The position numbers and the translations under genes were made by a program. This document shows, piece after piece, positions 15,541 to 60,067 of a DNA stretch of 64,000 bases; the stretch's first letter is position 1, and each line of letters starts with the position of its first letter. The DNA comes from Bacilli bacterium (GTDB lineage: Bacteria; Bacillota_I; Bacilli_A; ML615J-28; CAG-698). The DNA lies in the NCBI GenBank assembly GCA_050953065.1, contig JBMNLZ010000002.1, forward strand, positions 480,001 through 544,000, read 5' to 3'. Below the pieces are notes generated by a model. It searched no databases, was not told the DNA's origin, and saw only the letters and a program-made list of their open reading frames with translations.

Positions 15541-16278
15541 ATGAGAGATTATTCAAGCGAATTAGAAAAAAGAATTGCTTTTATTAAGGAAGCACTTAAA
15601 AATGCTAACGCTAAAGGTTTGATTTTTGGTAATAGTGGCGGAAAAGACAGTGCACTAGTTGCCATACTTTGTAAAGCTGCATGTGAAAATACGTTAGGAG
15701 TTATTATGCCTTGTGAATCAAAACAAAATTATAATCAAGATACAATAGATGCTTTAGAAATAGCTAAAAAGTTTAATATTGAAACAAGAACAATTGATTT
15801 AACTAAAACAAAAAAAACTTTAGTTGAAAGTATAAATAAAAGTAAAAGAATAGAAGGTTCAGGTATAACAAATATTGCTCCTCGTCTAAGAATGACAACT
15901 CTATATACAATTGCAGCTTTTGAAAATAGATTAGTAGTTGGAACTGGAAATAAAAGTGAAATTTTTATGGGATATTTTACTAAATGGGGTGATGGTGCTT
16001 TTGATATAAATCCGATTGCTGATTTATCGGTTTCAGAAGTATATGAATTTCTTGCTTATTTAAATGCTCCAAAAAGCATTTTAGAAAAGGTTCCTTCAGC
16101 AGGCTTGTTTGAAGGCCAAACTGATGAACTTGAAATGGGTGTAAGTTATAAAGCGATTGAAGCTTATATGAAGGGGCTAGAAGTTTCTAAAGAAGAAAAA
16201 GAAATTATTGAAAGATACCATAGAAATACAGAACATAAAAGAGTTAAACCTAAAATATATGGTGATAATAATAAATAG
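15541..16278 (+). CDS. nadE: NH3-dependent NAD+ synthetase (single domain, no glutaminase)
   Basis: 'SGGKDS', 'NIAPRLRM', 'GTGNKSE', 'FTKWGDG', 'PSAGL'; 245 aa with no nitrilase domain. Confidence 0.95.
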   Translation: MRDYSSELEKRIAFIKEALKNANAKGLIFGNSGGKDSALVAILCKAACENTLGVIMPCESKQNYNQDTIDALEIAKKFNIETRTIDLTKTKKTLVESINKSKRIEGSGITNIAPRLRMTTLYTIAAFENRLVVGTGNKSEIFMGYFTKWGDGAFDINPIADLSVSEVYEFLAYLNAPKSILEKVPSAGLFEGQTDELEMGVSYKAIEAYMKGLEVSKEEKEIIERYHRNTEHKRVKPKIYGDNNK

Positions 16279-41173: not shown

Positions 41174-44100
41174 ATGAATAAATATAGAATCTTTGTTGAA
41201 AAAAAAGAAGGCTTTCAAATAGAAGCTAAAGCATTAGCAAATGAATTTAATAGTAATTTAAATCAAAAAATAAGAAATGTAAGATTTATCAATATATATG
41301 ATGTTTTCAATATCTCAAAAGAATTATTAGAAAAAGCTAAAAGTTTAGTTTTTGCTGATAAAGTTCAAGATGTAATATATGATGATATTAAAGATTTAAA
41401 AATTGGAAATAATCAATTTTTTGCAATTGAATTTTTACCAGGTCAATTTGATCAAAGAGCAGATAGTACAAAACAACTAATTGCATTTATTGATCCAAAA
41501 GCTGAAGTTTTTGTAAAGACTGGTAAGTTAATTGTTTTAGAAGGCGAAGTTGATTTAGAAAAAGTAAAAGGATATTATATCAATAAAATTGAAACTAGAG
41601 AAAAAGATTTAAATGTTTTAAATTATAGTGATAATGATTTGCCAAAACCAGTTGGTTTTGTTGAAGATTTTTTTGATTTATCTTCAAAAGAATTAGTTGA
41701 TAAATTTCAACTAGCAATGTCAGTTAAAGACATGGATATGATAAAAGAACATTATACGAGTGAGGCAAGAAAACCAACTGTAACTGAAATTAAAATGTTA
41801 GATACTTATTGGTCAGATCATTGTCGTCATACAACATTTGAAACAGAACTTGATATTGAAATTAAGGATAAAAGAATAAAACAAGCTTTCGAAAAATATT
41901 TATCAATGAGAAACGTTTTAAAGCGTGAAGCTAAGCCTGTTACATTAATGGATATGGCTAAGATAAACATGCTTTATGAAAAAAATCAAAATAATTTAAA
42001 AGATTTAGAAATTTCAGAAGAAACTAATGCATGTAGTATTTATATAGATGTTGATGTAGATGGAAAAATAGAAAAATGGTTATTGATGTTTAAAAATGAA
42101 ACTCATAATCATCCTACTGAAGTAGAACCTTTTGGTGGGGCTTCAACTTGTGTGGGTGGTGCTATTAGAGACCCATTAAGTGGAAGAAGCTATGTATATC
42201 AAGCACTTCGTGTAACTGGAGCAGCTGATATTACAAAACCAATCTCTGAAACTTTAGAAGGAAAACTACCTCAAAGAGTGATTTCTAAAAAAGCTGCTTT
42301 AGGTTATTCTTCTTATGGAAATCAAATTGGTTTACCTGCAAGTTATATTAAAGAGATTTTTCATGAGGGATATTTAGCTAAAAGAATGGAATTAGGAGCT
42401 GTAATTGCTGCTTGCCCTGTTGAAAATGTTATTAGAAAAACTCCACAAGAAGGAGATGTTGTAATCTTACTTGGTGGAAGAACTGGAAGAGATGGGATTG
42501 GTGGAGCAACAAGTTCATCTAAACAACACACTGATACATCTTTAGAACAATCAGCAGCTGAAGTGCAAAAAGGTAATGCTCCTGAAGAACGTAAAATTCA
42601 AAGATTGTTTAGAAAAGCAGAAGTAACTACGTTAATTAAAAAAGCTAATGATTTTGGTGCAGGTGGAGTTAGTGTTGCAATTGGTGAATTAGCAGATGGT
42701 TTAGAGATCTATTTAGATAAAGTTCCAGTTAAATATAAAGGTTTAAATGAAACTGAACTTGCTATATCAGAGTCTCAAGAAAGAATGGCAGTTGTAGTTA
42801 GTAAAAAAGATGTAGAAAAGTTTATTAAACTATCAAGTGAAGAAAACTTAGAAGCAACAGTTGTTGCTAAGGTAACTTCAAATAATCGTTTAATAATGAA
42901 ATATAATGATAAAGTAGTAGTTAATTTAAGTAGAGATTTTATCAATACAAATGGTGCAAGACAGAATGCTAAAGTTGTTATTGCTGAAGCAAATTATGCA
43001 GAACTTGCTAAAACTTGTAAAACTACTAATTTAAAAGAAGATATAGTTACTAATTTAAGTGATTTAAATGTTTGTAGTCAAAAAGGATTAATCGAAATGT
43101 TTGACTCAACAATTGGTGCATCTACAGTTTTGATGCCTTATGGTGGAAAATATCAAGAAACTCCAACTCAAGGTTCAGTTGGATTAATCCCAGTATTGGA
43201 AGGTAATACTAAAACATGTTCTATAATGACTGTTGGATATAATCCTGTTTTATCAAGTATTAGTCCATATCATGGAGCTAAATATGCGATTGTTGAATCA
43301 ATGGCAAAACTAGTTGCTATGGGTGGAGAGTATGAAAAAGTGAGATTTACTTTCCAAGAGTATTTTGAAAAATTAGGTAAAGATAGTTCTAAATGGGCTA
43401 AACCTACTGCAAGCCTATTAGGAGCAGTTGAAATATTAAATGAATTTAATTTAGCATCAATTGGTGGTAAAGATTCAATGAGTGGAACATTTAATGATTT
43501 AAATGTACCTCCTGCTTTAATATCTTTTGCTGTTACAACAGCAAATAGTGATAATATTGTATCACCTGAATTAAAATCATCAGGAAACTATTTGTATTTA
43601 GTAAAAGCAAATTATGATAAAGACTATTTACCAAATGCTTCTTTATTAAAGAAAAACTTTAAATTAGTAGAAAAGTTAATTAAAGAAAAGACTATTGTTT
43701 CAAGTTATGCTTTAGAGTTTGGTGGACTATCAGCAGCTTTAATTAAAATGTCTTTAGGAAATAAATTAGGTTTAGATGTTTCAACTAAAGAAAATCTATT
43801 TGATATAACTTATGGAAATATAGTAATTGAGTCTACAAAAGAACTAACTCTAGATAATTTTATTAAATTAGGTAAAGTAACAGATGGAACTATTATAATA
43901 AATGGCTGTACTTTAACTCATGAAGAAGCACTTAAAGCTTTAAAAGCACCTCTTGAAAAGATTTATCCAGAATATGGTAGAAGTGTAAATAGTAATTTAA
44001 GTATTTCTAAAGATTGTTATGATAAAGTTAGTCCTAAATTTAATAAAACTAAAGTTAATGTATTAATTCCAGTCTTTCCTGGAAGTAATAATGAATATGA

Positions 44101-44848
44101 TATTTATAAAGCGTTTCTTGAAGAAAAAGCTAATCCGAAAATGTTAGTATTTAAGAATCTAACATTTAAAGATATTAGCAATTCGATTATTGAATTAAAA
44201 GAAGCAATTGATAAAACAGATATTCTTGTTATTGGTGGAGCTTTGCCAGCTGGAGATGGAAGTGATGGTTCTGGAAAATATCTTGCATGTATTTTAAATA
44301 ATCAAGAAATAAAAGAAGCAATAGAAAAATTAATTGCTAGAAAAGGACTAATTTTAGGAATTAGTAGTGGTTTCCAAGCTTTAGTAAAAGCGGGATTATT
44401 GCCATATGGAGACTTTAAAACAAAAGAGTCTTCACCTACTTTAGTAAAAAATGAAATCAACAGATATGTTTCTAAGTTTGTAAAAACAAGAGTTACGAGC
44501 CTAAAATCTCCTTGGCTTTCTTCGTTTGAAGTAGGAGAAGTTCATGAAGTTGCTATTAGCCAAGGTGAGGGTGGTTTTGTAGTAGATTTAGAAATGGCTA
44601 AAAATTTATTTGATAATGGGCAAGTTGCTTTTCAATATTGTGATTTTGAAGGGAAAGTAACGAATGATCCAAAATATAATCCAAATGGAAGTTTATATGC
44701 CATTGAAGGGATTATTTCAAAAGATGGATTGATTTTAGGAAAAATGGGACATTCTGAAAGAAAAGATGAAAATGCTTTTAAAAATATTTATGGAAATAAA
44801 GTTCAAAATATCTTTGCTAATGCAGTGAATTATTTTAAAGGCATTTAA
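41174..44848 (+). CDS. purL: FGAM synthase, fused large form (PurL + PurQ domain); glutaminase Cys replaced by Ser
   Basis: 'YWSDHCRHTTF', 'ETHNHPTE.EPFGGA', 'DFGAGG', 'SESQERM', 'GGKDSM'; C-terminal 'ILGISSGFQAL', 'MGHSER'. Confidence 0.95.
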   Translation: MNKYRIFVEKKEGFQIEAKALANEFNSNLNQKIRNVRFINIYDVFNISKELLEKAKSLVFADKVQDVIYDDIKDLKIGNNQFFAIEFLPGQFDQRADSTKQLIAFIDPKAEVFVKTGKLIVLEGEVDLEKVKGYYINKIETREKDLNVLNYSDNDLPKPVGFVEDFFDLSSKELVDKFQLAMSVKDMDMIKEHYTSEARKPTVTEIKMLDTYWSDHCRHTTFETELDIEIKDKRIKQAFEKYLSMRNVLKREAKPVTLMDMAKINMLYEKNQNNLKDLEISEETNACSIYIDVDVDGKIEKWLLMFKNETHNHPTEVEPFGGASTCVGGAIRDPLSGRSYVYQALRVTGAADITKPISETLEGKLPQRVISKKAALGYSSYGNQIGLPASYIKEIFHEGYLAKRMELGAVIAACPVENVIRKTPQEGDVVILLGGRTGRDGIGGATSSSKQHTDTSLEQSAAEVQKGNAPEERKIQRLFRKAEVTTLIKKANDFGAGGVSVAIGELADGLEIYLDKVPVKYKGLNETELAISESQERMAVVVSKKDVEKFIKLSSEENLEATVVAKVTSNNRLIMKYNDKVVVNLSRDFINTNGARQNAKVVIAEANYAELAKTCKTTNLKEDIVTNLSDLNVCSQKGLIEMFDSTIGASTVLMPYGGKYQETPTQGSVGLIPVLEGNTKTCSIMTVGYNPVLSSISPYHGAKYAIVESMAKLVAMGGEYEKVRFTFQEYFEKLGKDSSKWAKPTASLLGAVEILNEFNLASIGGKDSMSGTFNDLNVPPALISFAVTTANSDNIVSPELKSSGNYLYLVKANYDKDYLPNASLLKKNFKLVEKLIKEKTIVSSYALEFGGLSAALIKMSLGNKLGLDVSTKENLFDITYGNIVIESTKELTLDNFIKLGKVTDGTIIINGCTLTHEEALKALKAPLEKIYPEYGRSVNSNLSISKDCYDKVSPKFNKTKVNVLIPVFPGSNNEYDIYKAFLEEKANPKMLVFKNLTFKDISNSIIELKEAIDKTDILVIGGALPAGDGSDGSGKYLACILNNQEIKEAIEKLIARKGLILGISSGFQALVKAGLLPYGDFKTKESSPTLVKNEINRYVSKFVKTRVTSLKSPWLSSFEVGEVHEVAISQGEGGFVVDLEMAKNLFDNGQVAFQYCDFEGKVTNDPKYNPNGSLYAIEGIISKDGLILGKMGHSERKDENAFKNIYGNKVQNIFANAVNYFKGI

Positions 44849-44897
44849 ATAAATTTGAAAAATAAGATTTAGGTAAGATGAATCCTAAATAGAATGG

Positions 44898-46280
44898 ATG
44901 GATATGGAAAAGGTATTCAAAAATAAAATTAATGAAGAATGTGGTGTTGTAGCAGTATTTAATTGCCATGATGCCTCAGAAATTGTATTTTATGCTTTGC
45001 ATGCTTTACAACATCGTGGTCAAGAAGGTTGCGGAATGGTATGTGCTAATAATGGTGATTTTAAATTAATTAAAGGTCCAGGATTAGTTCATGAAAACTT
45101 TCATGATAATACTTTAAAAAAGCTAGTTGGCGATATGGGAATAGGACATGTGAATTATCCAAGCATTAGAAGCGGTAATGATGTTTCGATGTTACAACCA
45201 TATTTGTTTAGACATTGTGACGGAGACTTTGCCATCGCTAATAATGGTAGTATGACTAATTATCAAGAAATTAGACTTTTTCTTGAGCATAATGGTAGTA
45301 TATTTCAATCAAACTCTGATGCTGAAATGATTGCTCATTTAATCAAGAAAGAACAAAATGCCAACATGTTAGAATCTATAAAAGGAGCATTAAATAAAAT
45401 AGAAGGTAGTTTTTCATGTGTTATTATGACTGAAGATAAAATTTATGCATGTCGTGATAAACATGGTTTTAAACCTTTAGCACTTGGAAAATTAAATGGT
45501 GGTTATATCGTTGTTTCTGAAACATGTGCTTTTGAACTTTGTGTAGCCGATTATATTAGAGATATAGAACCAGGTGAAATCTTAGTGATTTCTAAGGATG
45601 GTTTACATAGTGAAAAATACAGTAAAGATATTAATCATCATATGTGTGCTATGGAATATATTTATTTTGCAAGACCAGATAGCGAGATTGAAGGAATTAA
45701 TGTTCATTTATTCCGCCGTGAAACTGGAAGACTATTAGCTAAAGAAAGCCCAGTTGAGGCTGATGTTGTTGTAGGGGTTCCTGATTCATCACTTTCTGCT
45801 GCTATGGGATATGCTGAGGAAAGTAAGATTCCAAATGAAACTGGATTGATTAAAAATAAATATGTTGGAAGAACTTTTATTCAAGTTGCCCAAAGATTAA
45901 GAGAAAGAACAGTTCGTATGAAACTATCTACTGTTTCAGCGGTTGTAAAGGGCAAAAGAGTTGTTTTAGTAGATGATTCAATTGTTAGAGGAACAACATC
46001 TAAAAGAATTGTTACACTTTTAAGAGAAAGTGGAGCAAAAGAAGTGCATGTTAGAATTTCTTCTCCTCAAATGCAACATTCTTGTTATTATGGAGTTGAT
46101 ACTTCTACAGAAGAAGAATTAATTGGAGCTAATAAAACACTTGAAGAAATTAAAGAAGCAATTGGAGCAGATACTCTTGCATTCTTATCAGTTGATTCTT
46201 TATATAAAGCTAGTAAGAGAGCACAGTTATGTACTGCATGTTTTAATGGAGTATATCCAACAAAAATTAGAAAGAAATAA
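44898..46280 (+). CDS. purF: Amidophosphoribosyltransferase (propeptide, Fe-S type)
   Basis: 'NEECGV', 'LQHRGQE', 'YFARPDS', '[10 protein letters not shown]', Fe-S Cys residues in CAME, CYYG and CTAC. Confidence 0.95.
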
Positions 46281-46303
46281 ATGTAAAGGATTTTTTAAAA
46301 AAT

Positions 46304-47323
46304 ATGAGTAAAATATATAAAAGTGCTGGCGTTGATTTAGAAGCAGGATATGAAGGTGTACGTTTAATTAAAGAACACGTTCTAAAAACAAAAAGATTAG
46401 GGATGATGGGCGGAATTGGTTCTTTTGGTGGGATGTTTGATTTATCTATTTTAAAGTATAAAGAACCGGTTTTAGTAAGTGGAACTGATGGAGTTGGAAC
46501 AAAATTAATGATTGCTCAACTTTTAGATATTCATGATACGATTGGACAAGATGTTGTAGCGATGTGTGTTAATGATGTTTTAGCACAAGGAGCAGAACCA
46601 ATATTCTTTTTAGATTATATTGCAATTGGAAAAAATGATCCTTTAAAAGTTTCAGAGATTGTTAAAGGAGTAAGTGATGGGTGTATAAAAGCAGGCGCTG
46701 CTTTAGTTGGAGGGGAAACTGCTGAGATGCCTGATATGTATCAAAAAGATGAATATGACATTGCAGGGTTTACTGTAGGAGTTGTTGAAAAAAGTAAGAT
46801 AATAGATGGCTCTAAGGTAAGCGCTGGGGATGTTTTAATTGGAATTAAATCTTCTGGAATTCATTCAAATGGTTATTCTTTAGTTAGAAAGATAGTTTTT
46901 AAAGACCAAAAACTTAATTTAGAAGAACAAGTAGGACCTAAAAAATTAAAAGAATGGTTAATTGAACCTACTAGAATCTATGTAAAGAGTGTTTTAGAAG
47001 TTATTAAAAATGTTGACGTTCATGCGATTGCTCATATAACAGGTGGTGGATTTGATGAAAATATTCCAAGAGCCTTAAATAAAAATCAAGGAGCAACAAT
47101 CTTTGAAGAAAAACTTCCTAAATTAGAAATTTTTAAATATTTAGAAGAAAAAGGTGGAGTTAATCACCGTGAAATGTATAATGTTTTTAATATGGGAGTT
47201 GGAATGATTATTATCGTTAAAAAAAATGATGCTAAAAAAGTAATTGAAATTTTAAATAAAAATGGTGAAGAAGCATTTGAAATTGGAGTAGTTACTACTA
47301 AAGAAGGAATTGAAATATTATGA
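46304..47323 (+). CDS. purM: AIR synthetase
   Basis: 'GTDGVGTK', 'GGETAEMP', 'SSGIHSNG', 'HITGGG', 'FNMG'. Confidence 0.97.
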
Positions 47324-47871
47324 ATATAGCAGTTTTTGCTTCTGGGAATGGTAGTAATTTTGAAGCCATTGCTAAAACAAAATTTAAAAAAATAAAAATA
47401 AAACTTTTAATAACTGATAAAGAGAATGCATATTGTATTGAAAGAAGTAAAAGGTTAAATATTCCTTATTTTGTTTTTCCGTATAAAAAGTTTAAATCAA
47501 AAAAAGAATATGAAGAAAACATTTTAAAAAAATTAAAAGAAGAAAAAATTGATGTTATAGTTTTAGCTGGTTATATGAGAATTTTAGAAGATACTATTCT
47601 AAATGCTTATGAAAATAAAATTATTAACATTCATCCTTCGCTATTACCTGCTTTTAAGGGAATGAATGCAATTGAAGAAGCCTATAAAGCAGGGGTAAAA
47701 ATTATTGGTATAACAGTTCATTATGTTAATAAAGAATTAGATGGTGGCGAAATAATCGCTCAAGAATGTTTTAAAATTAAGAATTTAACATTAAAAGAAA
47801 CGGAAGCTAAAATACATAAGCTAGAACATAAACTTTATCCGAAAGTGTTAAAAGAATTATTTGATAGGTGA
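47320..47871 (+). CDS. purN: GAR formyltransferase
   Basis: 'ASGNGSN', 'LAGYMRIL', 'NIHPSLLP', 'LDGG.II.Q'. Confidence 0.96.
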
Positions 47872-47875
47872 TATT

Positions 47876-49111
47876 ATGAAAGTTTTAATAATAGGAAGTG
47901 GGGGACGCGAACACGCAATTGCCTCTTACATTGCAGCATCAAAACATAAACCACAAGTTTTTGTAGCAAAAGGAAATGCTGGGATGACTTGTGCAACGCT
48001 TGTTAATATTAATGAAGATGATAATAAAGCATTAGTTAGATTTGCTTTAAAGGAAAAAATTGATTTAACAATCGTTGGGCCTGAAGCTGCTTTAAATAAT
48101 GGGCTAGTTGATGACTTTAGAAAAAATAATTTACTAATCTTTGGACCAACAAAAGATGCGGCTAGAATTGAAAGCAGTAAAAAGTTTGCTAAAGAATTAA
48201 TGGAAAAATATGATATTCCAACCGCTAAATATAAAGCTTTTTCTAATTATGAAGACGCAATTGAATATATACAAAAAAACACCCTTCCTATGGTTATAAA
48301 ATATGATGGGCTTGCTGCTGGGAAAGGTGTTGTAATTGCTAACCTTTTTGAAGAAGCAGAAGAATTTTTAAAAGAAATCTTTTTAAAAGGTAAGTATGAC
48401 ACTAAAGAAGTTATTATTGAAGAATACTTAGAAGGTCCAGAATTTTCTTTAATGGCTTTTGTTAATAAAGATAAAGTTTATCCTATGGAAATAGCACAAG
48501 ACCATAAAAGAGCTTATGATTATGATATGGGGCCTAATACTGGTGGAATGGGTGCATATAGTCCTGTTAATATTATTTCTAAAGAAGATATTGACTATGC
48601 AGTAAAGAATATTATGGAAAAAACTGCCAAAGCATTAGTTAGTGAAGGAATCTGTTATTTAGGGGTTTTATATGGTGGTTTGATGAAAACCAAAGATGGA
48701 ATTAAAGTCATTGAGTTTAACGCAAGATTTGGAGACCCAGAAACTGAAGTAGTTTTACCTAGACTTAAGAATGATTTACTAGATGTAATATTAAATGTTA
48801 TTGCTAAAAAAGATTTTAAACTTAATTGGACAAATGATATATGTTTAGGTGTAGTAATGGCTTCAATTGGATACCCAGGAAATTACAAGAAAAATTGTGA
48901 AATAAGTAATATTCCAGAAGAAGATGTTTTTCATATGGGAACTAAAATAGAAGATGGCAAAATAGTAAATAATGGTGGTAGAGTTTTAATAGTTTTAGGA
49001 AAAGGTAAAACTTTTCTAGAAGCTAGAGAAAATGCATATAAGAAGGTAGCAGAAGTTCAATCTAAGAATTTATTTTTTAGAAAAGATATAGGCTATCAAA
49101 TGATTAAATAA
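47876..49111 (+). CDS. purD: GAR synthetase
   Basis: 'GSGGREHA', 'DGLAAGKGV', 'QDHKR', 'GPNTGGMG', 'EFNARFGDPE'; ATG 47876 after AGGTGA. Confidence 0.97.
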   Translation: MKVLIIGSGGREHAIASYIAASKHKPQVFVAKGNAGMTCATLVNINEDDNKALVRFALKEKIDLTIVGPEAALNNGLVDDFRKNNLLIFGPTKDAARIESSKKFAKELMEKYDIPTAKYKAFSNYEDAIEYIQKNTLPMVIKYDGLAAGKGVVIANLFEEAEEFLKEIFLKGKYDTKEVIIEEYLEGPEFSLMAFVNKDKVYPMEIAQDHKRAYDYDMGPNTGGMGAYSPVNIISKEDIDYAVKNIMEKTAKALVSEGICYLGVLYGGLMKTKDGIKVIEFNARFGDPETEVVLPRLKNDLLDVILNVIAKKDFKLNWTNDICLGVVMASIGYPGNYKKNCEISNIPEEDVFHMGTKIEDGKIVNNGGRVLIVLGKGKTFLEARENAYKKVAEVQSKNLFFRKDIGYQMIK

Positions 49112-52127
<3,016 letters not shown>

Positions 52128-52135
52128 GAGAAGAA

Positions 52136-53689
52136 ATGAAAGCATTAATAAGTGTTTTTTATAAAGATGGAATAGTTGATTTTGCAAAAAGATTAAATAA
52201 ATTAGGTGTAGAGATTGTTTCAACTGGTGGGACTTATAAAACGTTAAAACAAAACGATGTTCCTGTTTTAGAAGTTTCTGATTTAACAGGATTTAGGGAA
52301 TGTTTAGAAGGAAGAGTTAAAACTCTTCATCCTGTGATTCATGCAGGAATTTTAGCCAAAAGATCATCTGATGAACATATGAAACATTTAAAAGAACTAA
52401 AAATTGATACAATTGATTTTGTTGTAGTAAATCTTTATCCTTTTAAAGAGGTAATCTTAAAAGAGGATACGACATTTGATTTAGCAGTTGAAAACATAGA
52501 TATCGGTGGACCGACAATGTTAAGAGCTGCTGCTAAGAATTACCAAGATGTGGTAGTGATAGTTGACCCTAAAGATTATGAAAAAGTTTTAGATGAATTA
52601 GAAAAGACGAAAAATGTATCAATGGAAACAAGACTTTATTTAATGCAAAAAGTATTTGCTCATACAGCTGCATATGATGCATTAATAGCAAAATATTTAT
52701 CAAATAAAAGAGAAGATTATTCATTCCCAGAAAATTTAACTTTAGTATATGAAAAAGTTCAAGATATGAGATATGGAGAAAACCCTCATCAAAAAGCAAG
52801 CTTTTATAAAGATGTGTTAGATAATCGTGGCAATTTGCCAAGTGCAATTCAATTAAATGGTAAAGAATTATCTTTTAATAATATTAATGATACTAATGGT
52901 GCTTTAGAATTATTAAAAGAATTTGAAGAACCAACTGTTGTTGCATGCAAACATGGCAATCCATGTGGTGTTGGAAGTGCTGATAGTATATATGAGGCTT
53001 GGAGTAAAGCATTTAATGCAGACAAAGTTTCTATTTTTGGTGGAATTGTAGTTTTAAATAGAGAAGTTACTTTAGAAATAGCTTTAGAAATGAATAAAAT
53101 ATTTTTAGAAGTGATAGTTGCACCAAGCTATGAAAAAGAAGCTTTAGAAGTTTTACAATCAAAGAAGAACTTAAGAATCTTACAAATAAAAGAAGATATT
53201 ATGTTAAAACAATCAGAACATGCATATGATTTAAAGAAAATCAATGGCGGATTGATTGTTCAAACGGTAGATAGTATTATTTTAGGAGATTCTTTAAATA
53301 ATGTTACTAAGAAAAAACCAACAAAAGAAGAGATGGAAGATTTAATCTTTGCAATGAAGGTTGTTAAGTTTGCAAAATCAAATGGTATTGTAATTGCAAA
53401 AAATAAGCAAACTATTGGAATTGGTCCAGGTCAAGTTAATAGAATTTGGGCTGCTAAACAATCAATTGAACATGCTGGTGAGTTAATTGGTGAAGGAGTA
53501 ACAAAAGGAGCAGTTTTAGCTTCAGATGCATTCTTTCCATTTGATGATGTTGTAAGAGTTGCTAATGATGCAGGAATTACTGCGATTATTCAACCAGGAG
53601 GATCTATAAAAGATCAAGATAGTATTGATAGATGTAATGAATTTAATATCGCAATGGTATTTACAGGAGTTAGACATTTTAAACATTAA
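52136..53689 (+). CDS. purH: Bifunctional AICAR transformylase/IMP cyclohydrolase
   Basis: 'GRVKTLHP', 'IDIGGP', 'RYGENPHQ', 'SDAFFPF', 'QPGGS', 'RHFKH'. Confidence 0.98.
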
Positions 53690-53710
53690 AAAAATAGAAT
53701 GGAGTATCTT

Positions 53711-54574
53711 ATGAAAAATCTAAAAACATTAAAAGAATTAGAAATTAGCGAAATTTTAGAAATACTTAAAGATGCAAAAGAATTTAAAAACGGTATGGTT
53801 TATAAATTAAGCGATAAAGTTATAGCTAATTTATTCTTTGAACCATCTACAAGAACCCAAAACTCATTTAATATGGCAGCATTGAAACTTGATATGAAAG
53901 TAATCAATTTCAATGCTAATATGTCATCACTACAAAAAGGTGAATCTTTTTATGATACAGTTAGAACATTTGAAGCTTTGGGGGTAGATGCTTTAGTTAT
54001 TAGACATTCACAAGATAGATACTATGATGAATTAAAAAATATAAAAGTTCCGATAATCAATGCAGGGGATGGAGTTGTAAGCCATCCCAGTCAAACGTTA
54101 TTAGACCTTTTTACTATTTATGAAGAGTTTGGTAAGTTTGAAGGCTTAAATGTAATGATAGTAGGAGACATTAAACATTCAAGAGTAGCTCACGAAAATA
54201 TTGATATTATGAAACGCCTTGGAATGAATTGTTTTGTTTCGGGAGCTTTAGAGTTTAAGGAAGATGGTTTTGATTGGGATGATTTTGATGAAGGTTTAAA
54301 GAAAGCTGACATTGTAATGATGTTGAGAATTCAACATGAACGTCATCAAGAAAGGCTACAAATGTCTATTACTGAATATCTAGAAAAATATGGACTAACT
54401 CTTTATAGAGTAAATCAAATGAAGCCAAATGCAATAATCATGCATCCTGCTCCATTTAATAGAGGTGTTGAAATAGAAGGAGCAGTAGCTGAATGTGAAA
54501 AGTCTAGAATTTTTAAACAAATTGAAAATGGGGTTTATGTAAGACAAGCCATCATTAAAAGGAGTTTCTCATGA
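53711..54574 (+). CDS. pyrB: Aspartate carbamoyltransferase
   Basis: 'FFEPSTRT', 'HPSQTLLD', 'HSRVA', 'MHPAP'; ATG 53711 after GGAG. Confidence 0.96.
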   Translation: MKNLKTLKELEISEILEILKDAKEFKNGMVYKLSDKVIANLFFEPSTRTQNSFNMAALKLDMKVINFNANMSSLQKGESFYDTVRTFEALGVDALVIRHSQDRYYDELKNIKVPIINAGDGVVSHPSQTLLDLFTIYEEFGKFEGLNVMIVGDIKHSRVAHENIDIMKRLGMNCFVSGALEFKEDGFDWDDFDEGLKKADIVMMLRIQHERHQERLQMSITEYLEKYGLTLYRVNQMKPNAIIMHPAPFNRGVEIEGAVAECEKSRIFKQIENGVYVRQAIIKRSFS

Positions 54575-55833
54575 TATTTACTTTAAAAAATGCTAGAATT
54601 TATATGAATAATAAATTCTTACAAAAAGATATTTTGGTATCAGATGGTAGGATATCTGAAATTGATACAGATATTGAAGAAGGAAGAATAATAGATTGTA
54701 AGAATAAGTTAGTTGCACCTGCTTTTATTGACCCGCATGTTCATGGTAGACAACCAGGATATGAATATAAAGAAACTATTGCAACAGTTACTAAAGCTGC
54801 TGCAAAAGGTGGCTATACTAAAATCTTTTTGATGCCTAATTTAAAACCTGTTCCAAGCAATTTGGAAAATCTGAACTTGATTTTTAATATTATAAAAAAA
54901 GATGCTTTAATTGATTGTTATCAATTAGCATCAATTACTAAAAATCAATCAGGAAAAGATGGATTAAGTGATATTGAAAGGTTAGCTCCTTATGTTGTTG
55001 GATTTTCTGATGATGGGAAGGGCGTAGTTGATAGCGGAACAATGTATGAGGCAATGTTGAAAGCTAAGAAATATAATAGAGCAATTCTAGCTCATGCTGA
55101 AGATGAATCGCTTCTTTATGGTGGGGTAATTCATAAAGGGCAAATTAGTGAGGAACAAAACATACCAGGCATTCTTTCGGCTAGTGAAACTGTACAAGTA
55201 GCAAGAGATTTAGTGCTAGCAGAAGCAACAAAAGTTCATTATCATTTATGTCATGTATCAGCTAAAGAAACTCTTTCTTTAGTTAAATATTTTAAAGATA
55301 GAGGCGTTAATGTAACGGTTGAGGCTACACCTCATCATATTTTGTTAAATGAAACAGATTTAAAAGATGATGGAATTTATAAGGTTAATCCACCGCTTCG
55401 TAGTAAAGAAGATCAAGAAGCAATTATTAAGGCTCTTCAAAATGGTGTGATTGATATGATTGCAACAGATCATGCTCCACATAGTGAAGAAGAAAAAAAT
55501 AAAGGGTTATTAAACTCTTCCTTTGGTATGGTTGGAATTGAAACTTCTTTTGGATTATTGTATACTTATTTGGTTAAACAAAAGAAGATAAGTTTAGAAA
55601 AACTTTTAGATATGATGAGTCTAAATGTAAGCAAAGCATTTGGAATTGAGAGTAATCAAATAAAAGTTGGAAATAGTGCTAATTTAGTCGTTATTGATTT
55701 AGAGAAAGAGTTTATTATAGATAAGAATAAATTTGTAAGTAAAGGGAAAAACACTCCTTTTAATGGATATAAATGTTTTGGACAAATTATAATGACGGTT
55801 TCAAAAGGGGAAATAGTATATGAATTACAGTAA
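54571..55833 (+). CDS. pyrC: Dihydroorotase (type I)
   Basis: 'DPHVH.R.PG', 'MPN..P', 'TPHH', 'KVNPPLR', 'ATDHAPH'. Confidence 0.96.
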   Translation: MIFTLKNARIYMNNKFLQKDILVSDGRISEIDTDIEEGRIIDCKNKLVAPAFIDPHVHGRQPGYEYKETIATVTKAAAKGGYTKIFLMPNLKPVPSNLENLNLIFNIIKKDALIDCYQLASITKNQSGKDGLSDIERLAPYVVGFSDDGKGVVDSGTMYEAMLKAKKYNRAILAHAEDESLLYGGVIHKGQISEEQNIPGILSASETVQVARDLVLAEATKVHYHLCHVSAKETLSLVKYFKDRGVNVTVEATPHHILLNETDLKDDGIYKVNPPLRSKEDQEAIIKALQNGVIDMIATDHAPHSEEEKNKGLLNSSFGMVGIETSFGLLYTYLVKQKKISLEKLLDMMSLNVSKAFGIESNQIKVGNSANLVVIDLEKEFIIDKNKFVSKGKNTPFNGYKCFGQIIMTVSKGEIVYELQ

Positions 55834-56893
55834 AAAGATAGTTTTAGAAAATGGAATAGTTTTTGAAGGAATTGGATATGGTGCTGATGCTGAAGTGATT
55901 GGTGAAATATTGATAAATACTTCAATGGTAGGATATCAAGAAGTTTCTGCTGATTCGGTTTATCTAGACAAAATTGTAGTTATGACATATCCTTTAATTG
56001 GAAATTATGGAATCAATTCTGATTATGATAAAACTAAAAAAATGAAGCCTTCAGCGTTAGTTGTTAGGGATTATAATGATAAACCATCTAACTTTAGATC
56101 AATTAAATCTTTAGCAGAACTTGCTGAGGAAAATGGGGCTGTAATTTTATCAGATATAGATACAAGATATTTAACGAATATCTTAAGAAAAGAAGGTTCG
56201 ATGATTGGTATTATTACTGATACTTCTAATTCGTTAGAATATTGTATAGAAAAAATTAAAGCATATAAAGAAAAACCTAAAACAACTTCAAAAGTTAGTG
56301 TTAAGAAGAAATGGGTTTCAAAAACTGAAAATCCGAATTATGATGTTGTTGTAGTGGATTTAGGAACAACTGTTGAGCTAGTTAATGCATTAAATCAAAA
56401 TAGATGTAATGTAACTGTTGTTCCAATTACTGTCAAAGCAGAAGATATAAAAGAATTACATCCAGATGGAGTAATTTTATCAAATGGACCAGGTAATCCT
56501 GAAGATTATACGGAAGTAATAGATTTAGTTAAAAAGATTCAAGGTAAATTACCTTTGAATGGAATTTCTCTTGGAATGCAAATTATAGCTTTAGCAAACA
56601 ACGCTAAAACTAGAAAATTAGAATTAGGACATTTCGGTTGTAATATTCCTGTAAGAGAAATTGAAAGTGGTAAAATAAGAATTACTACACAAAATAGTGC
56701 ATATGAAGTAATTGAGGACTCTTTAGAAAAAACTGATTTTGAAATTGTTTTTAAAAATGTTTTGGATAATACTATTCAAGGTATCAAAGATAATAAAAAG
56801 TTAATTTATGCAATTCAATATTATCCTGATGAATCAACTGATTTTTATGGCATCTTTATTGAAAATATCAAAATACAGAAGCAGGGGGCCTAA
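55820..56893 (+). CDS. carA: Carbamoyl-phosphate synthase small subunit; catalytically degenerate (Cys to Ser, His to Tyr)
   Basis: 'NTSMVGYQE', 'YPLIGNYG', 'LSNGPGNP', 'GISLGMQ', 'IQYYPD'. Confidence 0.93.
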   Translation: MNYSKKIVLENGIVFEGIGYGADAEVIGEILINTSMVGYQEVSADSVYLDKIVVMTYPLIGNYGINSDYDKTKKMKPSALVVRDYNDKPSNFRSIKSLAELAEENGAVILSDIDTRYLTNILRKEGSMIGIITDTSNSLEYCIEKIKAYKEKPKTTSKVSVKKKWVSKTENPNYDVVVVDLGTTVELVNALNQNRCNVTVVPITVKAEDIKELHPDGVILSNGPGNPEDYTEVIDLVKKIQGKLPLNGISLGMQIIALANNAKTRKLELGHFGCNIPVREIESGKIRITTQNSAYEVIEDSLEKTDFEIVFKNVLDNTIQGIKDNKKLIYAIQYYPDESTDFYGIFIENIKIQKQGA

Positions 56894-56896
56894 ATT

Positions 56897-59800
56897 ATGC
56901 CAAAAAGAACAGATATAAAGAAAATCTTAGTTATAGGATCTGGACCAATTGTAATTGGTCAAGCGGCTGAATTTGACTATGCAGGAACCCAAGCTTGTCT
57001 TGCTTTAAAAGAAGAAGGATATAAAGTAGTTTTGATAAACTCAAATCCAGCTACAATTATGACAGATACAATCATTGCAGATAAAGTATATATGGAACCA
57101 CTTAATTTAGAGTTTGTATCTAGAATTATCAGAATGGAACGCCCTGATGCATTATTACCAACTTTAGGCGGTCAAACTGCTTTAAATTTAGCTGTTCAGT
57201 TATATGAAAAAGGAATTTTAGCTGAATGTAGAGTAGAAGTAATTGGAACTTCAATTGATTCTATTGAGCATGGAGAAGATAGAGATTTATTCAAAAAACT
57301 ATGTGAAAGAATTTCACAACCTGTTTTGGAAAGTTTTATTGCAACAAACAAAAAAGAAGCTATTCAATATGCTAATCAAATAGGTTATCCTATTATTGTT
57401 AGACCTGGATATACTTTAGGAGGAACTGGTGGAGGCTTTGCAGATAACGATGCTCAATTATTATATTTAGTTGATAATGCTTTAAGTTTATCTTCAAATA
57501 ATACTGTTTTGATTGAAAAATCAATTAAGGGTTATAAAGAAATAGAATTTGAATGTATGAGAGATCATAAGGGGACAACTATTACTATTTGTTGTATGGA
57601 AAATATTGATCCAGTAGGTGTACATACTGGAGATTCAATGGTAGTTTGTCCGAGTCAAACTCTTGCAAGCAAAGAATATAATATGTTAAAACAAGCAAGC
57701 ATAAAAATTATTCAAGCTTTAGACATTATAGGTGGTTGTAATATTCAGTTTGCACTAGACCCTAATAGTTTTGATTATTATGTGATTGAGGTTAATCCTC
57801 GAGTTTCAAGATCATCAGCTCTTGCTAGTAAAGCAAGTGGTTATCCAATTGCTAGAGTAAGTTCAAAAATTGCAGTTGGTTTAAATTTAGATGAAATCGA
57901 TCTTTCATGTACAAAAGCATGCTTTGAACCTTCTTTAGATTACATTGTTGTAAAATTGCCAAGATTTCCATTTGATAAGTTTGTAAAAGCTAACAGAAAT
58001 TTATCTACTCAAATGAAAGCAACTGGCGAGGTTATGAGTGTTGGTAGAACATTTGAAGAAGCTTTTTTAAAGGGGATTAGATCTTTAGAGATTGGTGTTA
58101 ATCATATTTATCTTAAAAAGATGGCTGATAAATCAACTGAAGATTTACTTAAAAAAATAGAAAAACCTACTGATGAGGGGATTTTTGTTATTGCTGAGTT
58201 GTTAAGAAGAGATATTTCTGTTAGACAAATAAATTCTGTTACTAAAATAGATGCATATTTTTTAGATAAAATTAAATTAATAATTGATTTTGAAAAAGTA
58301 TTTAAAGCAGATCCTAGTTTAGATAATATTAAAAAGGCTAAACGTATGGGCTTTTCTGATGCATATCTAGCAGAAGTTATGGGAATGGATGAAATTGAAT
58401 TTTTCTTATTAAGAAAAGAAAATAATATTTTTCCAGTTTACCATATGATAGACACTTGCGCAGGTGAGTTTGATAGTTATGTGCCTTATTTATATTCAAC
58501 ATATGAATCATTTAATGAATCAATTGTGACTGAAAAAGAAAAAGTAATAGTTCTAGGGTCTGGTCCTATTAGAATAGGTCAAGGAGTTGAGTTTGACTAT
58601 TCAACAGTGCATGCCATTTGGGGTATTAAAGAAATGGGGTATGAGGCTATTGTAATTAATAATAACCCTGAAACTGTTTCAACGGATTATTTAATTTCTG
58701 ATAAATTATATTTTGAAGCTCTAACAATTGAAGATGTAATGAATATTATTACATTAGAAAAACCAAAAGGAGTGATTGTAGAACTTGGTGGTCAAACTGC
58801 TATTAATTTAGCAGAAAGACTTGATAGATTAAATATTCCAATTATTGGTAGTGATCCTAAAGCAATTGAAAGAGCAGAAAATAGAAAAAGCTTTGAAGCT
58901 TTAGTAAGAGAATTAAAAATTCCTCAACCAAAAGGGAAAACTGTTAATAATATGGCTGATGGAATAAAGACAGCAGAAGAGATAGGTTATCCTGTTTTAG
59001 TTCGTCCATCTTATGTTTTAGGTGGAAGAGCTATGCAAATTGTTTATGAAAATGAAGGATTAGTTAGATATTTAAACGAAGCCTTCTTAGTAGACAGCAA
59101 ACAACCTGTTTTAATTGATAAATATGTAAGTGGAAAAGAAGCTGAAGTAGATGCAGTATGTGATGGGGTTGATGTTTTTATTCCTGGTATAATGGAACAT
59201 ATTGAAAGAACAGGAGTTCATTCAGGAGATTCAATTAGTGTGTATCCACCAGTATCTTTAAGTGATAAAGTAAAAGAAAAGATTTGTGAGTATACAATAA
59301 AATTAGGCCTTGAAATAGGGATTGTTGGTTTGTTTAATATCCAGTTTATTGTTGAAAAGAATGATCAAGTATCTGTAATTGAGGTAAATCCTCGTTCAAG
59401 TAGAACAGTACCTTTTATTTCCAAAGCAACAAAAGTTAATCTTGCCAACATTGCAACAAAAGTTATGCTTGGTAAAAGTTTGAAAGAACAAGGCTTTACA
59501 ACTTGTTTGCTTGAAAAAGAATCAATTTATTATGTAAAAGCTCCGACATTTTCTTATTCTAAAATTGGTGGGTTAGATGCTGTTTTAAGTCCTGAAATGA
59601 AATCAACAGGAGAAGCAATAGGATATGATTCTTCTTTAAATAGGGCATTATATAAAGCATTAAAAGCAAGTAATCAAAAAGTTATTAATTATGGAACAGT
59701 TTTTGTAACGGTATCTGATAAAACAAAAGAAGAAGCATTGCCACTGGTTAGAAGATTTTATGAATTAGGTTTTAATATTGTAGCAACAAGAGGAACGGGT

Positions 59801-60067
59801 ATGTTTTTAAAAGAACATGGTATTAAAACTAGAGTTATGAAAAAAATTAGTGAGAATTCTGAAGAAATATTAGAAGAAATTAGAAAAGGATATATTTCTT
59901 ATATTATAAATACAGTAAGCAGTTATGATGACAGTGGTACTAGGGATGGGGCTATTATTAGAAAAGTTGCAGTTGAAAATAATATTACACCATTTACATC
60001 TCTTGATACTGTAAGAGTTTTATTAGATGTCCTTGATGAAATTACTATGAAGGTGAGAACAATTTAG
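56897..60067 (+). CDS. carB: Carbamoyl-phosphate synthase large subunit
   Basis: 'MPKRTDIKKILVIGSGPIVIGQAAEFDY', 'GVHTGDS', 'EVNPRVSRSS', duplicated ATP-grasp domains, MGS-like tail. Confidence 0.98.
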   Translation: MPKRTDIKKILVIGSGPIVIGQAAEFDYAGTQACLALKEEGYKVVLINSNPATIMTDTIIADKVYMEPLNLEFVSRIIRMERPDALLPTLGGQTALNLAVQLYEKGILAECRVEVIGTSIDSIEHGEDRDLFKKLCERISQPVLESFIATNKKEAIQYANQIGYPIIVRPGYTLGGTGGGFADNDAQLLYLVDNALSLSSNNTVLIEKSIKGYKEIEFECMRDHKGTTITICCMENIDPVGVHTGDSMVVCPSQTLASKEYNMLKQASIKIIQALDIIGGCNIQFALDPNSFDYYVIEVNPRVSRSSALASKASGYPIARVSSKIAVGLNLDEIDLSCTKACFEPSLDYIVVKLPRFPFDKFVKANRNLSTQMKATGEVMSVGRTFEEAFLKGIRSLEIGVNHIYLKKMADKSTEDLLKKIEKPTDEGIFVIAELLRRDISVRQINSVTKIDAYFLDKIKLIIDFEKVFKADPSLDNIKKAKRMGFSDAYLAEVMGMDEIEFFLLRKENNIFPVYHMIDTCAGEFDSYVPYLYSTYESFNESIVTEKEKVIVLGSGPIRIGQGVEFDYSTVHAIWGIKEMGYEAIVINNNPETVSTDYLISDKLYFEALTIEDVMNIITLEKPKGVIVELGGQTAINLAERLDRLNIPIIGSDPKAIERAENRKSFEALVRELKIPQPKGKTVNNMADGIKTAEEIGYPVLVRPSYVLGGRAMQIVYENEGLVRYLNEAFLVDSKQPVLIDKYVSGKEAEVDAVCDGVDVFIPGIMEHIERTGVHSGDSISVYPPVSLSDKVKEKICEYTIKLGLEIGIVGLFNIQFIVEKNDQVSVIEVNPRSSRTVPFISKATKVNLANIATKVMLGKSLKEQGFTTCLLEKESIYYVKAPTFSYSKIGGLDAVLSPEMKSTGEAIGYDSSLNRALYKALKASNQKVINYGTVFVTVSDKTKEEALPLVRRFYELGFNIVATRGTGMFLKEHGIKTRVMKKISENSEEILEEIRKGYISYIINTVSSYDDSGTRDGAIIRKVAVENNITPFTSLDTVRVLLDVLDEITMKVRTI

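Follow-up and report, generated by a model that had tools for sequence, protein, structure and literature searches.

In the textbook view of glutamine amidotransferases, an ammonia channel couples the glutaminase obligatorily to the synthase. The precedents for an uncoupled enzyme of this kind are individual cases. Vertebrate carbamoyl phosphate synthetase (CPS) I is described as lacking the catalytic Cys and using ammonia as its only donor (PMC7657897), and the C89A mutation of the Plasmodium falciparum GMP synthase (PfGMPS) abolished the glutamine-dependent activity and left the NH4Cl-dependent activity in place (PMC9312489). HisF of E. coli is active on its own, in the absence of HisH, when NH3 is high and the pH exceeds 8, and C. 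glutamicum with hisH deleted is able to grow (PMC3896937). PdxS of vitamin B6 synthesis can take ammonia directly (PMC11708016), and a survey encountered few genomes with PdxS alone, eight in all (PMC9997740). In the present study, a window of 64,000 nucleotides (the whole stretch of DNA analysed; positions 480001-544000 of contig C2 of the source genome, G000) was found to carry purL, guaA and carA with Ser in place of the nucleophile Cys in the class I glutaminase domain of each product, and the genes of two separate glutaminase subunits, hisH and pdxT, were found to be missing from the same genome. In this species and its sister lineage the class I glutaminase modules are probably dead and the enzymes dependent on ammonia, and free ammonia is probably the main nitrogen source from which the organism makes its nucleotides, histidine and vitamin B6. 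Five enzymes together would then have lost the coupling, along two different routes, in a natural organism whose close relatives retain earlier states.

CarA of G000 resembles CPS I in being a folded glutaminase module without the catalytic Cys, and its sequence finds human CPS1 chains at E=1e-37. CPS I is a fused urea-cycle enzyme with an N-acetylglutamate-dependent allosteric domain, whereas the two subunits of G000 have genes of their own, carA and carB, within a pyrimidine operon, and CarA falls outside the CPS I clade; the CarA losses appear to be independent of CPS I and to have taken place more than once within one bacterial order. As in the engineered E. coli CarA C269S (1c30/1c3o) and PfGMPS C89A, the same column is altered. 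Unlike these laboratory Cys mutants, G000 carries a naturally arisen, heritable change, together with further erosion and an alteration of the synthase half (the MGD loop of GuaA). Suppressors of a pdxT deletion in B. subtilis, in which PdxS acts without PdxT, were reportedly described by Richts in 2021. Unlike the mutant or in vitro cases of HisF and PdxS, the glutaminase genes of G000 are naturally absent from otherwise complete operons. No description of a natural bacterium with several such enzymes losing their glutaminases together could be found in a literature search that had subscription journals and supplementary files outside its reach.

The G000 genome consisted of 1.55 Mb in three contigs (C1, C2 and C3) with 30% G+C content and was 94% complete. 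It was compared within a set of 41 genomes, which included itself, a sister species of the same genus (G001) and further relatives (G004, G007, G025 and others). The term sister lineage is used here for proteins 93-96% identical to those of G000, collected from exact-sequence clusters of other sources and distinct from G001.

Nucleophile substitutions in PurL, GuaA and CarA

The nucleophile motifs of the three domains read GISSGFQ in PurL, GISYGMQ in GuaA and GISLGMQ in CarA, and the Ser codons AGT, AGT and TCT lay where the first-pass annotation of this DNA had placed them (Table 1). The equivalence of the columns was borne out by nearly full-length matches to the Pfam GATase_5 and GATase profiles and by structure-based alignment, in which each Ser fell on the catalytic Cys column: Ser1064 of PurL on the Cys of 'VCNGCQ' in Salmonella PurL (1t3t), Ser91 of GuaA on the Cys of 5tw7 and 7sbc, and the Ser of CarA on residue 269 of E. 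coli CarA, the best PDB match being the C269S mutant chain itself (1c30_B/1c3o). Ser at these columns is far from a chance event, and among the relatives compared it was confined to this genus. Cys-Asn was present in 118 of the 120 PurL homologues, Ser-Ser in one (G000's own), and one was missed by the search pattern; GuaA had Cys in 118 of 121 sequences (the query and its 120 best hits), the three with Ser being the G000 protein and the sister lineage; and CarA had Cys in 117/120, the three Ser-Ser-Tyr homologues all belonging to this genus. The accompanying loop changes that had been noticed, SQGEG in PurL, WMGEGD in GuaA and QNSA in CarA, were also present, but the His residues lost there belong to the glutamine-binding loops and are not the His of the catalytic triad. 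The glutamine-binding role of the WMSHGD loop of GMP synthases is described in PMC10526850.

The substitutions are real and inherited. Logan contigs of four sequencing runs were placed on positions 41174-56893, and no differing letter was present at any of the nine codon bases. Runs X1 (possibly the source of the assembly) and X3 (from a different study) spanned all three codons, with 0 other letters, while one contig of X4 spanned the PurL codon and one of X5 the GuaA codon, these two runs being from two further studies. Furthermore, the sister lineage, of other origin, has Ser in PurL, GuaA and CarA alike. The Ser and Gly codons at the nucleophile columns are all one base away from TGT, and codon changes of two bases accompany the Ser (for example CAC to GAA, ATG to AAA and GGT to GAG). 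An artefact of sequencing, assembly or binning would have to explain identical letters in independent contigs at all nine bases, the same residues in sequences of other origin and several codon changes that require two base substitutions; nothing was found in its favour, and its probability is negligible.

Changes unique to one genome were counted at the protein level, at columns where the outgroups agree, with G000 and G001 assumed to be sisters and all genomes compared being related. The PurL glutaminase domain showed 15 changes unique to G000 and 1 unique to G001 at columns invariant in four outgroups (p=5e-4), including GGFS to GALP, NCEYD to NNEYD, C1064S, N1065S and H1130Q, two His being hit. 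The synthetase part of the same chain showed 5 against 2 (p=0.45), all conservative, and it looks intact. The glutaminase domain of PurF, used as a control, was likewise unaccelerated (4 against 2 for G001, p=0.69). The PF13507 score of PurL was 211 bits (208.7 bits in a separate domain scan), compared to 249-285 bits in relatives bearing the Cys. The triad His and Glu are kept (GHSER); overall, the PurL glutaminase domain is judged to be catalytically dead. The chain also contains the Pfam domains AIRS_C, FGAR-AT_linker and GATase_5.

The changes in CarA went further. The equivalents of C269S, H312S, H353Y and E355D were observed, so that the triad His/Glu reads Tyr/Asp (YPD), and a deletion of six residues follows the triad. 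In comparison with G004, the glutaminase domain showed 62 against 9 lineage-specific changes (p=7e-11) and the N-domain 25 against 12 (p=0.047). The domain is judged to be dead as a glutaminase; nevertheless it is 77% identical between G000 and G001, equal to the N-domain, which suggests that it is conserved for something other than catalysis. CarB is presumed to be an ammonia-using synthetase.

In GuaA, the changes at invariant columns of the glutaminase domain were limited to C91S, Y113F, S139G and H140E. The domain retains the triad His and Glu (FHPE) as well as the Asp in WMxxGD and the Gln in GxSxGxQ; the triad is called 'invariant across GMPS sequences' in a recent review (PMC10526850). 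A further change was located in the ATP-pyrophosphatase domain, where the 'GVMGD' loop reads 'GVKED'. MGD was present in 117 of 118 Cys-bearing GuaAs and KED in all three Ser-bearing ones, the sister-lineage protein (GISYGMQ, WMGEGD) among them. The glutaminase-less GuaAs of relatives described below had MGD in 0/13 and K at the first place in 8/13, and the loop of G000 thus appears shifted toward their state. Going by its motif and a retained Arg, this may be the loop that the same review calls invariant (PMC10526850), and it is flagged here as a candidate element of the coupling between glutaminase and synthase.

All three proteins scored above the curated NCBIfam cut-offs; for CarA the scores were 340 bits against 221 (NF009475) and 336.5 against 307.35 (TIGR01368), and those of PurL and GuaA are listed in Table 1. 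The PF00117 domain scored 110 bits in CarA and 152.1 bits in GuaA, and the SGGVDSS P-loop, IKSHHN and KPPGTIEFE motifs were present in GuaA. Because these are equivalog cut-offs, annotation pipelines would label all three proteins 'glutamine-hydrolyzing'.

Table 1. Genes, domains and substituted codons in the window (position 1 is its first base)
Feature	Position	Strand	Remarks
purL	41174..44848	+	Large single-chain formylglycinamidine ribonucleotide (FGAM) synthase, 1224 aa; TIGR01857 1691.6 bits, cut-off 1057
PurL glutaminase domain	44051..44836	+	GATase_5, residues 960-1221
PurL Ser1064, nucleophile column	44363..44365	+	AGT; TGT in G001 and G004
PurL Gln1130 in SQGEG	44561..44563	+	CAA; His in 115/120 relatives
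guaA	50574..52127	+	Two-domain GMP synthase, 517 aa; NF000848 747.7 bits, cut-off 400
GuaA Ser91, nucleophile column	50844..50846	+	AGT; TGT in G001 and G004
GuaA Gly139-Glu140 in WMGEGD, glutamine-binding loop	50988..50993	+	GGA GAA; WMSHGD in 117/121
GuaA Lys452-Glu453, 'GVMGD' loop	51927..51932	+	AAA GAG; in the ATP-pyrophosphatase domain
carA	55820..56893	+	CPS small subunit, 357 aa; glutaminase domain residues 177-339, bases 56348-56836
CarA Ser250, nucleophile column	56567..56569	+	TCT; TCA in G001, TGT in G004
carB	56897..60067	+	CPS large subunit, intact; NF003671 1464.6 bits, TIGR01369 1450.5 bits
purF	44898..46280	+	Class II (Ntn) amidotransferase; TIGR01134 471.9 bits, profile begins at residue 15
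nadE	15541..16278	+	Single-domain NAD+ synthase, 245 aa, no glutaminase domain; TIGR00552 235 bits, cut-off 63.65

Deletion of hisH and pdxT

Outside the window, two further class I glutaminases were found to be deleted as whole genes. The his operon of G000 (C3:171916-178829) consisted of hisB, a 21-nt spacer, hisA, hisF and hisIE; hisH is gone and the operon is otherwise complete. In G001 (locus L272) and G004 the order is hisB-hisH-hisA-hisF, and the junctions of G001 overlap as ATGA. Among the 41 genomes, a true HisF was present in G000, G001 and G004 only, and HisH in G001 and G004 only. The hisF product of G000 scored 350 bits, over the cut-off, and carried 27 unique changes against 13, including FGNQC to FGKPS. 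Gln123 of HisF is a candidate interface residue, which was not mentioned in the paper searched.

The pdxS gene of G000 (C2:152771-153649) is 89% identical to that of G001 and is followed directly after its stop codon by a terminator hairpin. The corresponding locus of G001 (L290) reads pdxS-pdxT-terminator with the same hairpin. In G000, pdxT is cleanly excised, from the stop codon of pdxS up to this common terminator. Neither HisH nor PdxT could be found elsewhere in the 1.55 Mb of the 94% complete genome, so that the HisFH and PdxST holoenzymes are incompletely encoded, with their synthase subunits only.

A separate observation was made at locus L273 of G001, where another two genes for HisH- and HisF-like proteins (210 and 263 aa, with the Cys intact) lie beside sugar-modifying genes; no counterpart was found in G000.

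Order of loss among the relatives

The first-pass annotation had regarded the loss as lineage-wide. This requires some restriction, as the loss in CarA is common to G001 but those in PurL and GuaA are younger. G001 has Ser in CarA and Cys in both PurL and GuaA (the latter 83% identical to that of G000), which indicates that CarA died before G000 and G001 split. As G001 has Cys and the sister lineage has Ser, PurL and GuaA changed after the species split and before the sister lineage branched. Separate erosion followed, since the PurL column pair CN became SN in the sister lineage (GISNGFQ) and SS in G000, and SHGEG became SQGEG in G000 and SQSEG in the sister lineage.

Similar losses were observed more widely. 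CarA was present in 10 of the 41 genomes, with an intact active site only in G004, G027 and G035; the other seven lacked triad or glutamine-binding residues. The Cys was replaced by Gly or Ser in G025, G036, G030 and G040, while in G039 it was kept and Gln273 and His353 were lost. PurL of G007 is also dead, with a PF13507 score of only 148 bits. Thirteen related genomes (loci L015-L027) encode a GuaA of about 310-350 aa without a glutaminase domain and with the GVMGD loop altered, and two of these genomes (G007 and G017) lack any small class I glutamine amidotransferase (GATase) that might serve as its separate partner. These short proteins may represent a bacterial family of ammonia-only GMP synthases. 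GuaA of G008, split over two contig ends, was excluded from the scoring of the Cys. On this distribution, the tendency to lose glutaminases appears to be older than the species itself.

Beyond the set of relatives, a metagenome scan with the sister-lineage GuaA, in a collection from which very near records may be missing, revealed nothing closer than 81% identity. In a scan of genome contigs with the CarA alignment, the relatives among the matches listed had at most 52% identity and came from many phyla; among the 80 loci listed, the open reading frame (ORF) was found in 72 and the Cys in 69, and the remaining three may be misses of the search pattern.

Remaining amidotransferases and nitrogen genes of G000

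A substitute glutaminase acting in trans, which would have undermined the earlier claim, was not found in G000. The profile search yielded one match to PF13507 and three to PF00117; PF07685, PF01174 and PF04960 gave no match, and no second PurQ and no CobQ-type, PdxT-type or free glutaminase was present. The three PF00117 matches were GuaA, CarA and a C26-like protein of 218 aa (C1:243083-243739) with the motif LLGICRGIQ. It is the sole protein of the class I GATase fold with its Cys intact, and the statement that all class I GATases have lost the Cys therefore holds for PurL, GuaA and CarA but not for this fourth member. The protein scored below all NCBIfam cut-offs, the best being gamma-glutamyl-gamma-aminobutyrate hydrolase with 67 bits against 266. 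As a specific trans glutaminase it was rejected, although biochemically such a role is conceivable: it occurs in most relatives regardless of the state of their GATases and is absent from G007 and G017.

The wider idea of a glutamine-independent nucleotide synthesis proved to be overstated, because glutamine is still made and is used by PurF. The unaccelerated PurF keeps its N-terminal nucleophile Cys15 after a propeptide of 14 residues (EECGVVAVF), and a full-length glnA (glutamine synthetase) is present, as are glutamate dehydrogenase, AsnA and a single-domain NadE. No Amt, PF00310 (GOGAT-type domain), GlmS, PyrG, GatA or chorismate-binding synthases were found in G000. Hence, of the genes that had been proposed for checking across the genome, glnA is present, PyrG and GlmS were not found, and hisH is gone with hisF kept.

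Single-domain NadE is the ammonia-dependent form of the enzyme. The proposed enzymes of G000 would share the NH3-donor chemistry of single-domain NadE, of AsnA and of the archaeal-type GuaA ATP-pyrophosphatase subunit; to our knowledge, these families never carried a glutaminase, or are not known to have lost one, in the lineage concerned. Unlike in them, the loss in G000 can be traced stepwise between sister species. Another distant parallel is offered by the herpesvirus vGATs, homologues of FGAM synthase without glutaminase catalysis that are described as pseudo-amidotransferases (PMC7605207). The vGATs have signalling roles outside purine synthesis, whereas PurL of G000 is located in a purine operon and its synthetase part looks intact.

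Proposed ammonia-dependent synthesis and alternative explanations

The sequences themselves show the substitutions and deletions, their inheritance and a constraint that has been relaxed or redirected. In the proposed mechanism, every class I biosynthetic amidotransferase has lost its glutamine-hydrolysing half: glutaminases that are fused or obligate subunits (PurL, GuaA and CarA) were disabled through the nucleophile Cys and the neighbouring glutamine-binding or oxyanion residues with their fold kept, probably for a structural role, and the separate, dispensable subunits (HisH and PdxT) were lost through deletion of the gene. The PurL synthetase, the GuaA ATP-pyrophosphatase, CarB, HisF and PdxS would then take NH3 straight from the cytoplasm. 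Such direct use is feasible where ammonia is abundant, and it would avoid the ATP cost of each amide nitrogen that glutamine synthetase incorporates; high ammonia may have been the selective cause. The sequencing runs containing this DNA were labelled digester, bioreactor, sludge or biogas fermenter; the sequence evidence consisted of the contigs of four runs only, and the labels of 16 further runs were not used as evidence. A stronger form of this proposal, to which we give even chances, is an obligate ammonia economy. Here free NH3 would be the donor in every remaining class I reaction (purine N3, the guanine 2-amino group, carbamoyl phosphate, the histidine ring and the PLP, or pyridoxal phosphate, nitrogen), the dead domains would serve as structural or ammonia-admitting modules, the synthases would be adapting to solvent NH3, and growth would need tens of mM ammonium. 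The changes of MGD to KED in GuaA and of FGNQC to FGKPS in HisF are suggestive of such an adaptation.

Several points weigh against the ammonia-dependent reading. The triad His and Glu retained in PurL and GuaA leave room for a weak Ser-His-Glu glutaminase. The NH4+ Km values of GMP synthases are given as 10-174 mM (PMC10526850), so that direct use of NH3 needs very high ammonia or adapted enzymes. The glutaminase domain of GuaA showed no overall acceleration (18 against 11 unique changes, p=0.27), and its divergence relative to the ATP-pyrophosphatase domain, a ratio of about 2.1, lay inside the range of 2.1-3.7 seen in close Cys-bearing pairs; this domain is thus still under purifying selection for some function, and drift of the whole domain is not claimed. 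Strain polymorphism in the operon amounted to 25 sites (15 synonymous and 10 non-synonymous, one of them within a glutaminase domain), too few to gauge selection. Furthermore, a relocated hisH or pdxT could sit in the missing part of G000, the G001 genome used for comparison is fragmented (86% complete, 4% contamination), and the run labels are the sole habitat information for G000.

The retained triad residues raise an alternative in which Ser replaced Cys as a working nucleophile, so that PurL and GuaA remained glutaminases with a Ser-His-Glu triad and glutamine as the donor. The retained Asp of WMxxGD and Gln of GxSxGxQ and the normal relative rate of the GuaA glutaminase domain within the Ser clade agree with this. 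A swap of the nucleophile does not account for the changes in neighbouring residues (SH to GE in GuaA; GGFS to GALP, N1065S and H1130Q in PurL), for the independent erosion of SQGEG to SQSEG in the sister lineage or for the 15 against 1 acceleration of the PurL domain. CarA cannot fit it, having lost both His and Glu of the triad, and G000 has discarded hisH and pdxT altogether; the E. coli CarA C269S entry was reportedly deposited as a glutamine-bound, non-hydrolysing form. Continued glutamine use through Ser is therefore considered unlikely.

Decay of the whole pathways is another explanation, in which nucleobases, histidine and B6 are salvaged and the genes are pseudogenes at an early stage. 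It would suit a small genome of 1.55 Mb from which PyrG, GlmS and peptidoglycan ligases are missing, and also the 5 against 0 unique changes at invariant columns in the synthetase half of GuaA and the 27 against 13 in HisF. Against such decay, the closely spaced purE-carB run retains each of its 13 ORFs intact, scores of the synthase halves are far over the curated cut-offs, and the changes are concentrated in glutaminase modules, with the PurL synthetase part and PurF unaccelerated. The losses of hisH and pdxT were precise and left operon junctions and terminator usable, and the dead CarA domain stayed 77% conserved between G000 and G001; general decay is thus quite improbable. It can also be asked whether the same dead glutaminases were selected not by ammonia but by Cys-alkylating glutamine-analogue antimetabolites or by chronically low glutamine, an idea of our own that draws on the fact that only modules with a reactive Cys were hit. 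The Cys of PurF is a classical target of glutamine analogues and is untouched, and a broader pattern based on ammonia is seen in the relatives, where AsnA is present and Amt, a GOGAT-type domain and GlmS were not found, which makes this cause very improbable. Dead glutaminase modules on ammonia-dependent synthases remain the preferred reading.

If the enzymes are indeed active with NH3, G000 would provide enzymology and biocatalysis with forms of PurL, GuaA and CPS that natural evolution has specialised for ammonia, and the loss of glutaminases could serve as a genomic marker of high-ammonia life, with relevance to ammonia inhibition in biogas reactors. The annotation 'glutamine-hydrolyzing', and the metabolic models derived from it, would be wrong for such genomes. 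Within the order, intact, dead and deleted glutaminases would further form a natural gradation in which the dismantling of ammonia channelling can be studied.

Pyrimidine and cell wall genes and operon layout

CTP synthase was not found in G000, G001 or G025 by PF06418 or by tblastn with the PyrG of relatives. The UMP pathway is complete in these three genomes without a CTP synthase, and CTP in G000 presumably comes from cytidine salvage or another route. With respect to the cell wall, six to eight Mur-ligase matches were present in G004, G007 and G025, implying peptidoglycan, yet no GlmS was found there. A NagB-like gene was observed in G004 and G025, and with ammonia its product might operate in the reverse direction. 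G000 and G001 each had a single Mur-ligase-like match and are probably wall-less.

The genes on the forward strand between 40691 and 60067 of the window form a single, tightly packed run in the order purE-purL-purF-purM-purN-purD-guaB-guaA-purH-pyrB-pyrC-carA-carB. The first 29 bases of guaA (50574-50602) are also the last of guaB, and at several further junctions of the run neighbouring genes share 4-14 bases. These overlaps are suggestive of a joint purine and pyrimidine operon with translationally coupled genes.

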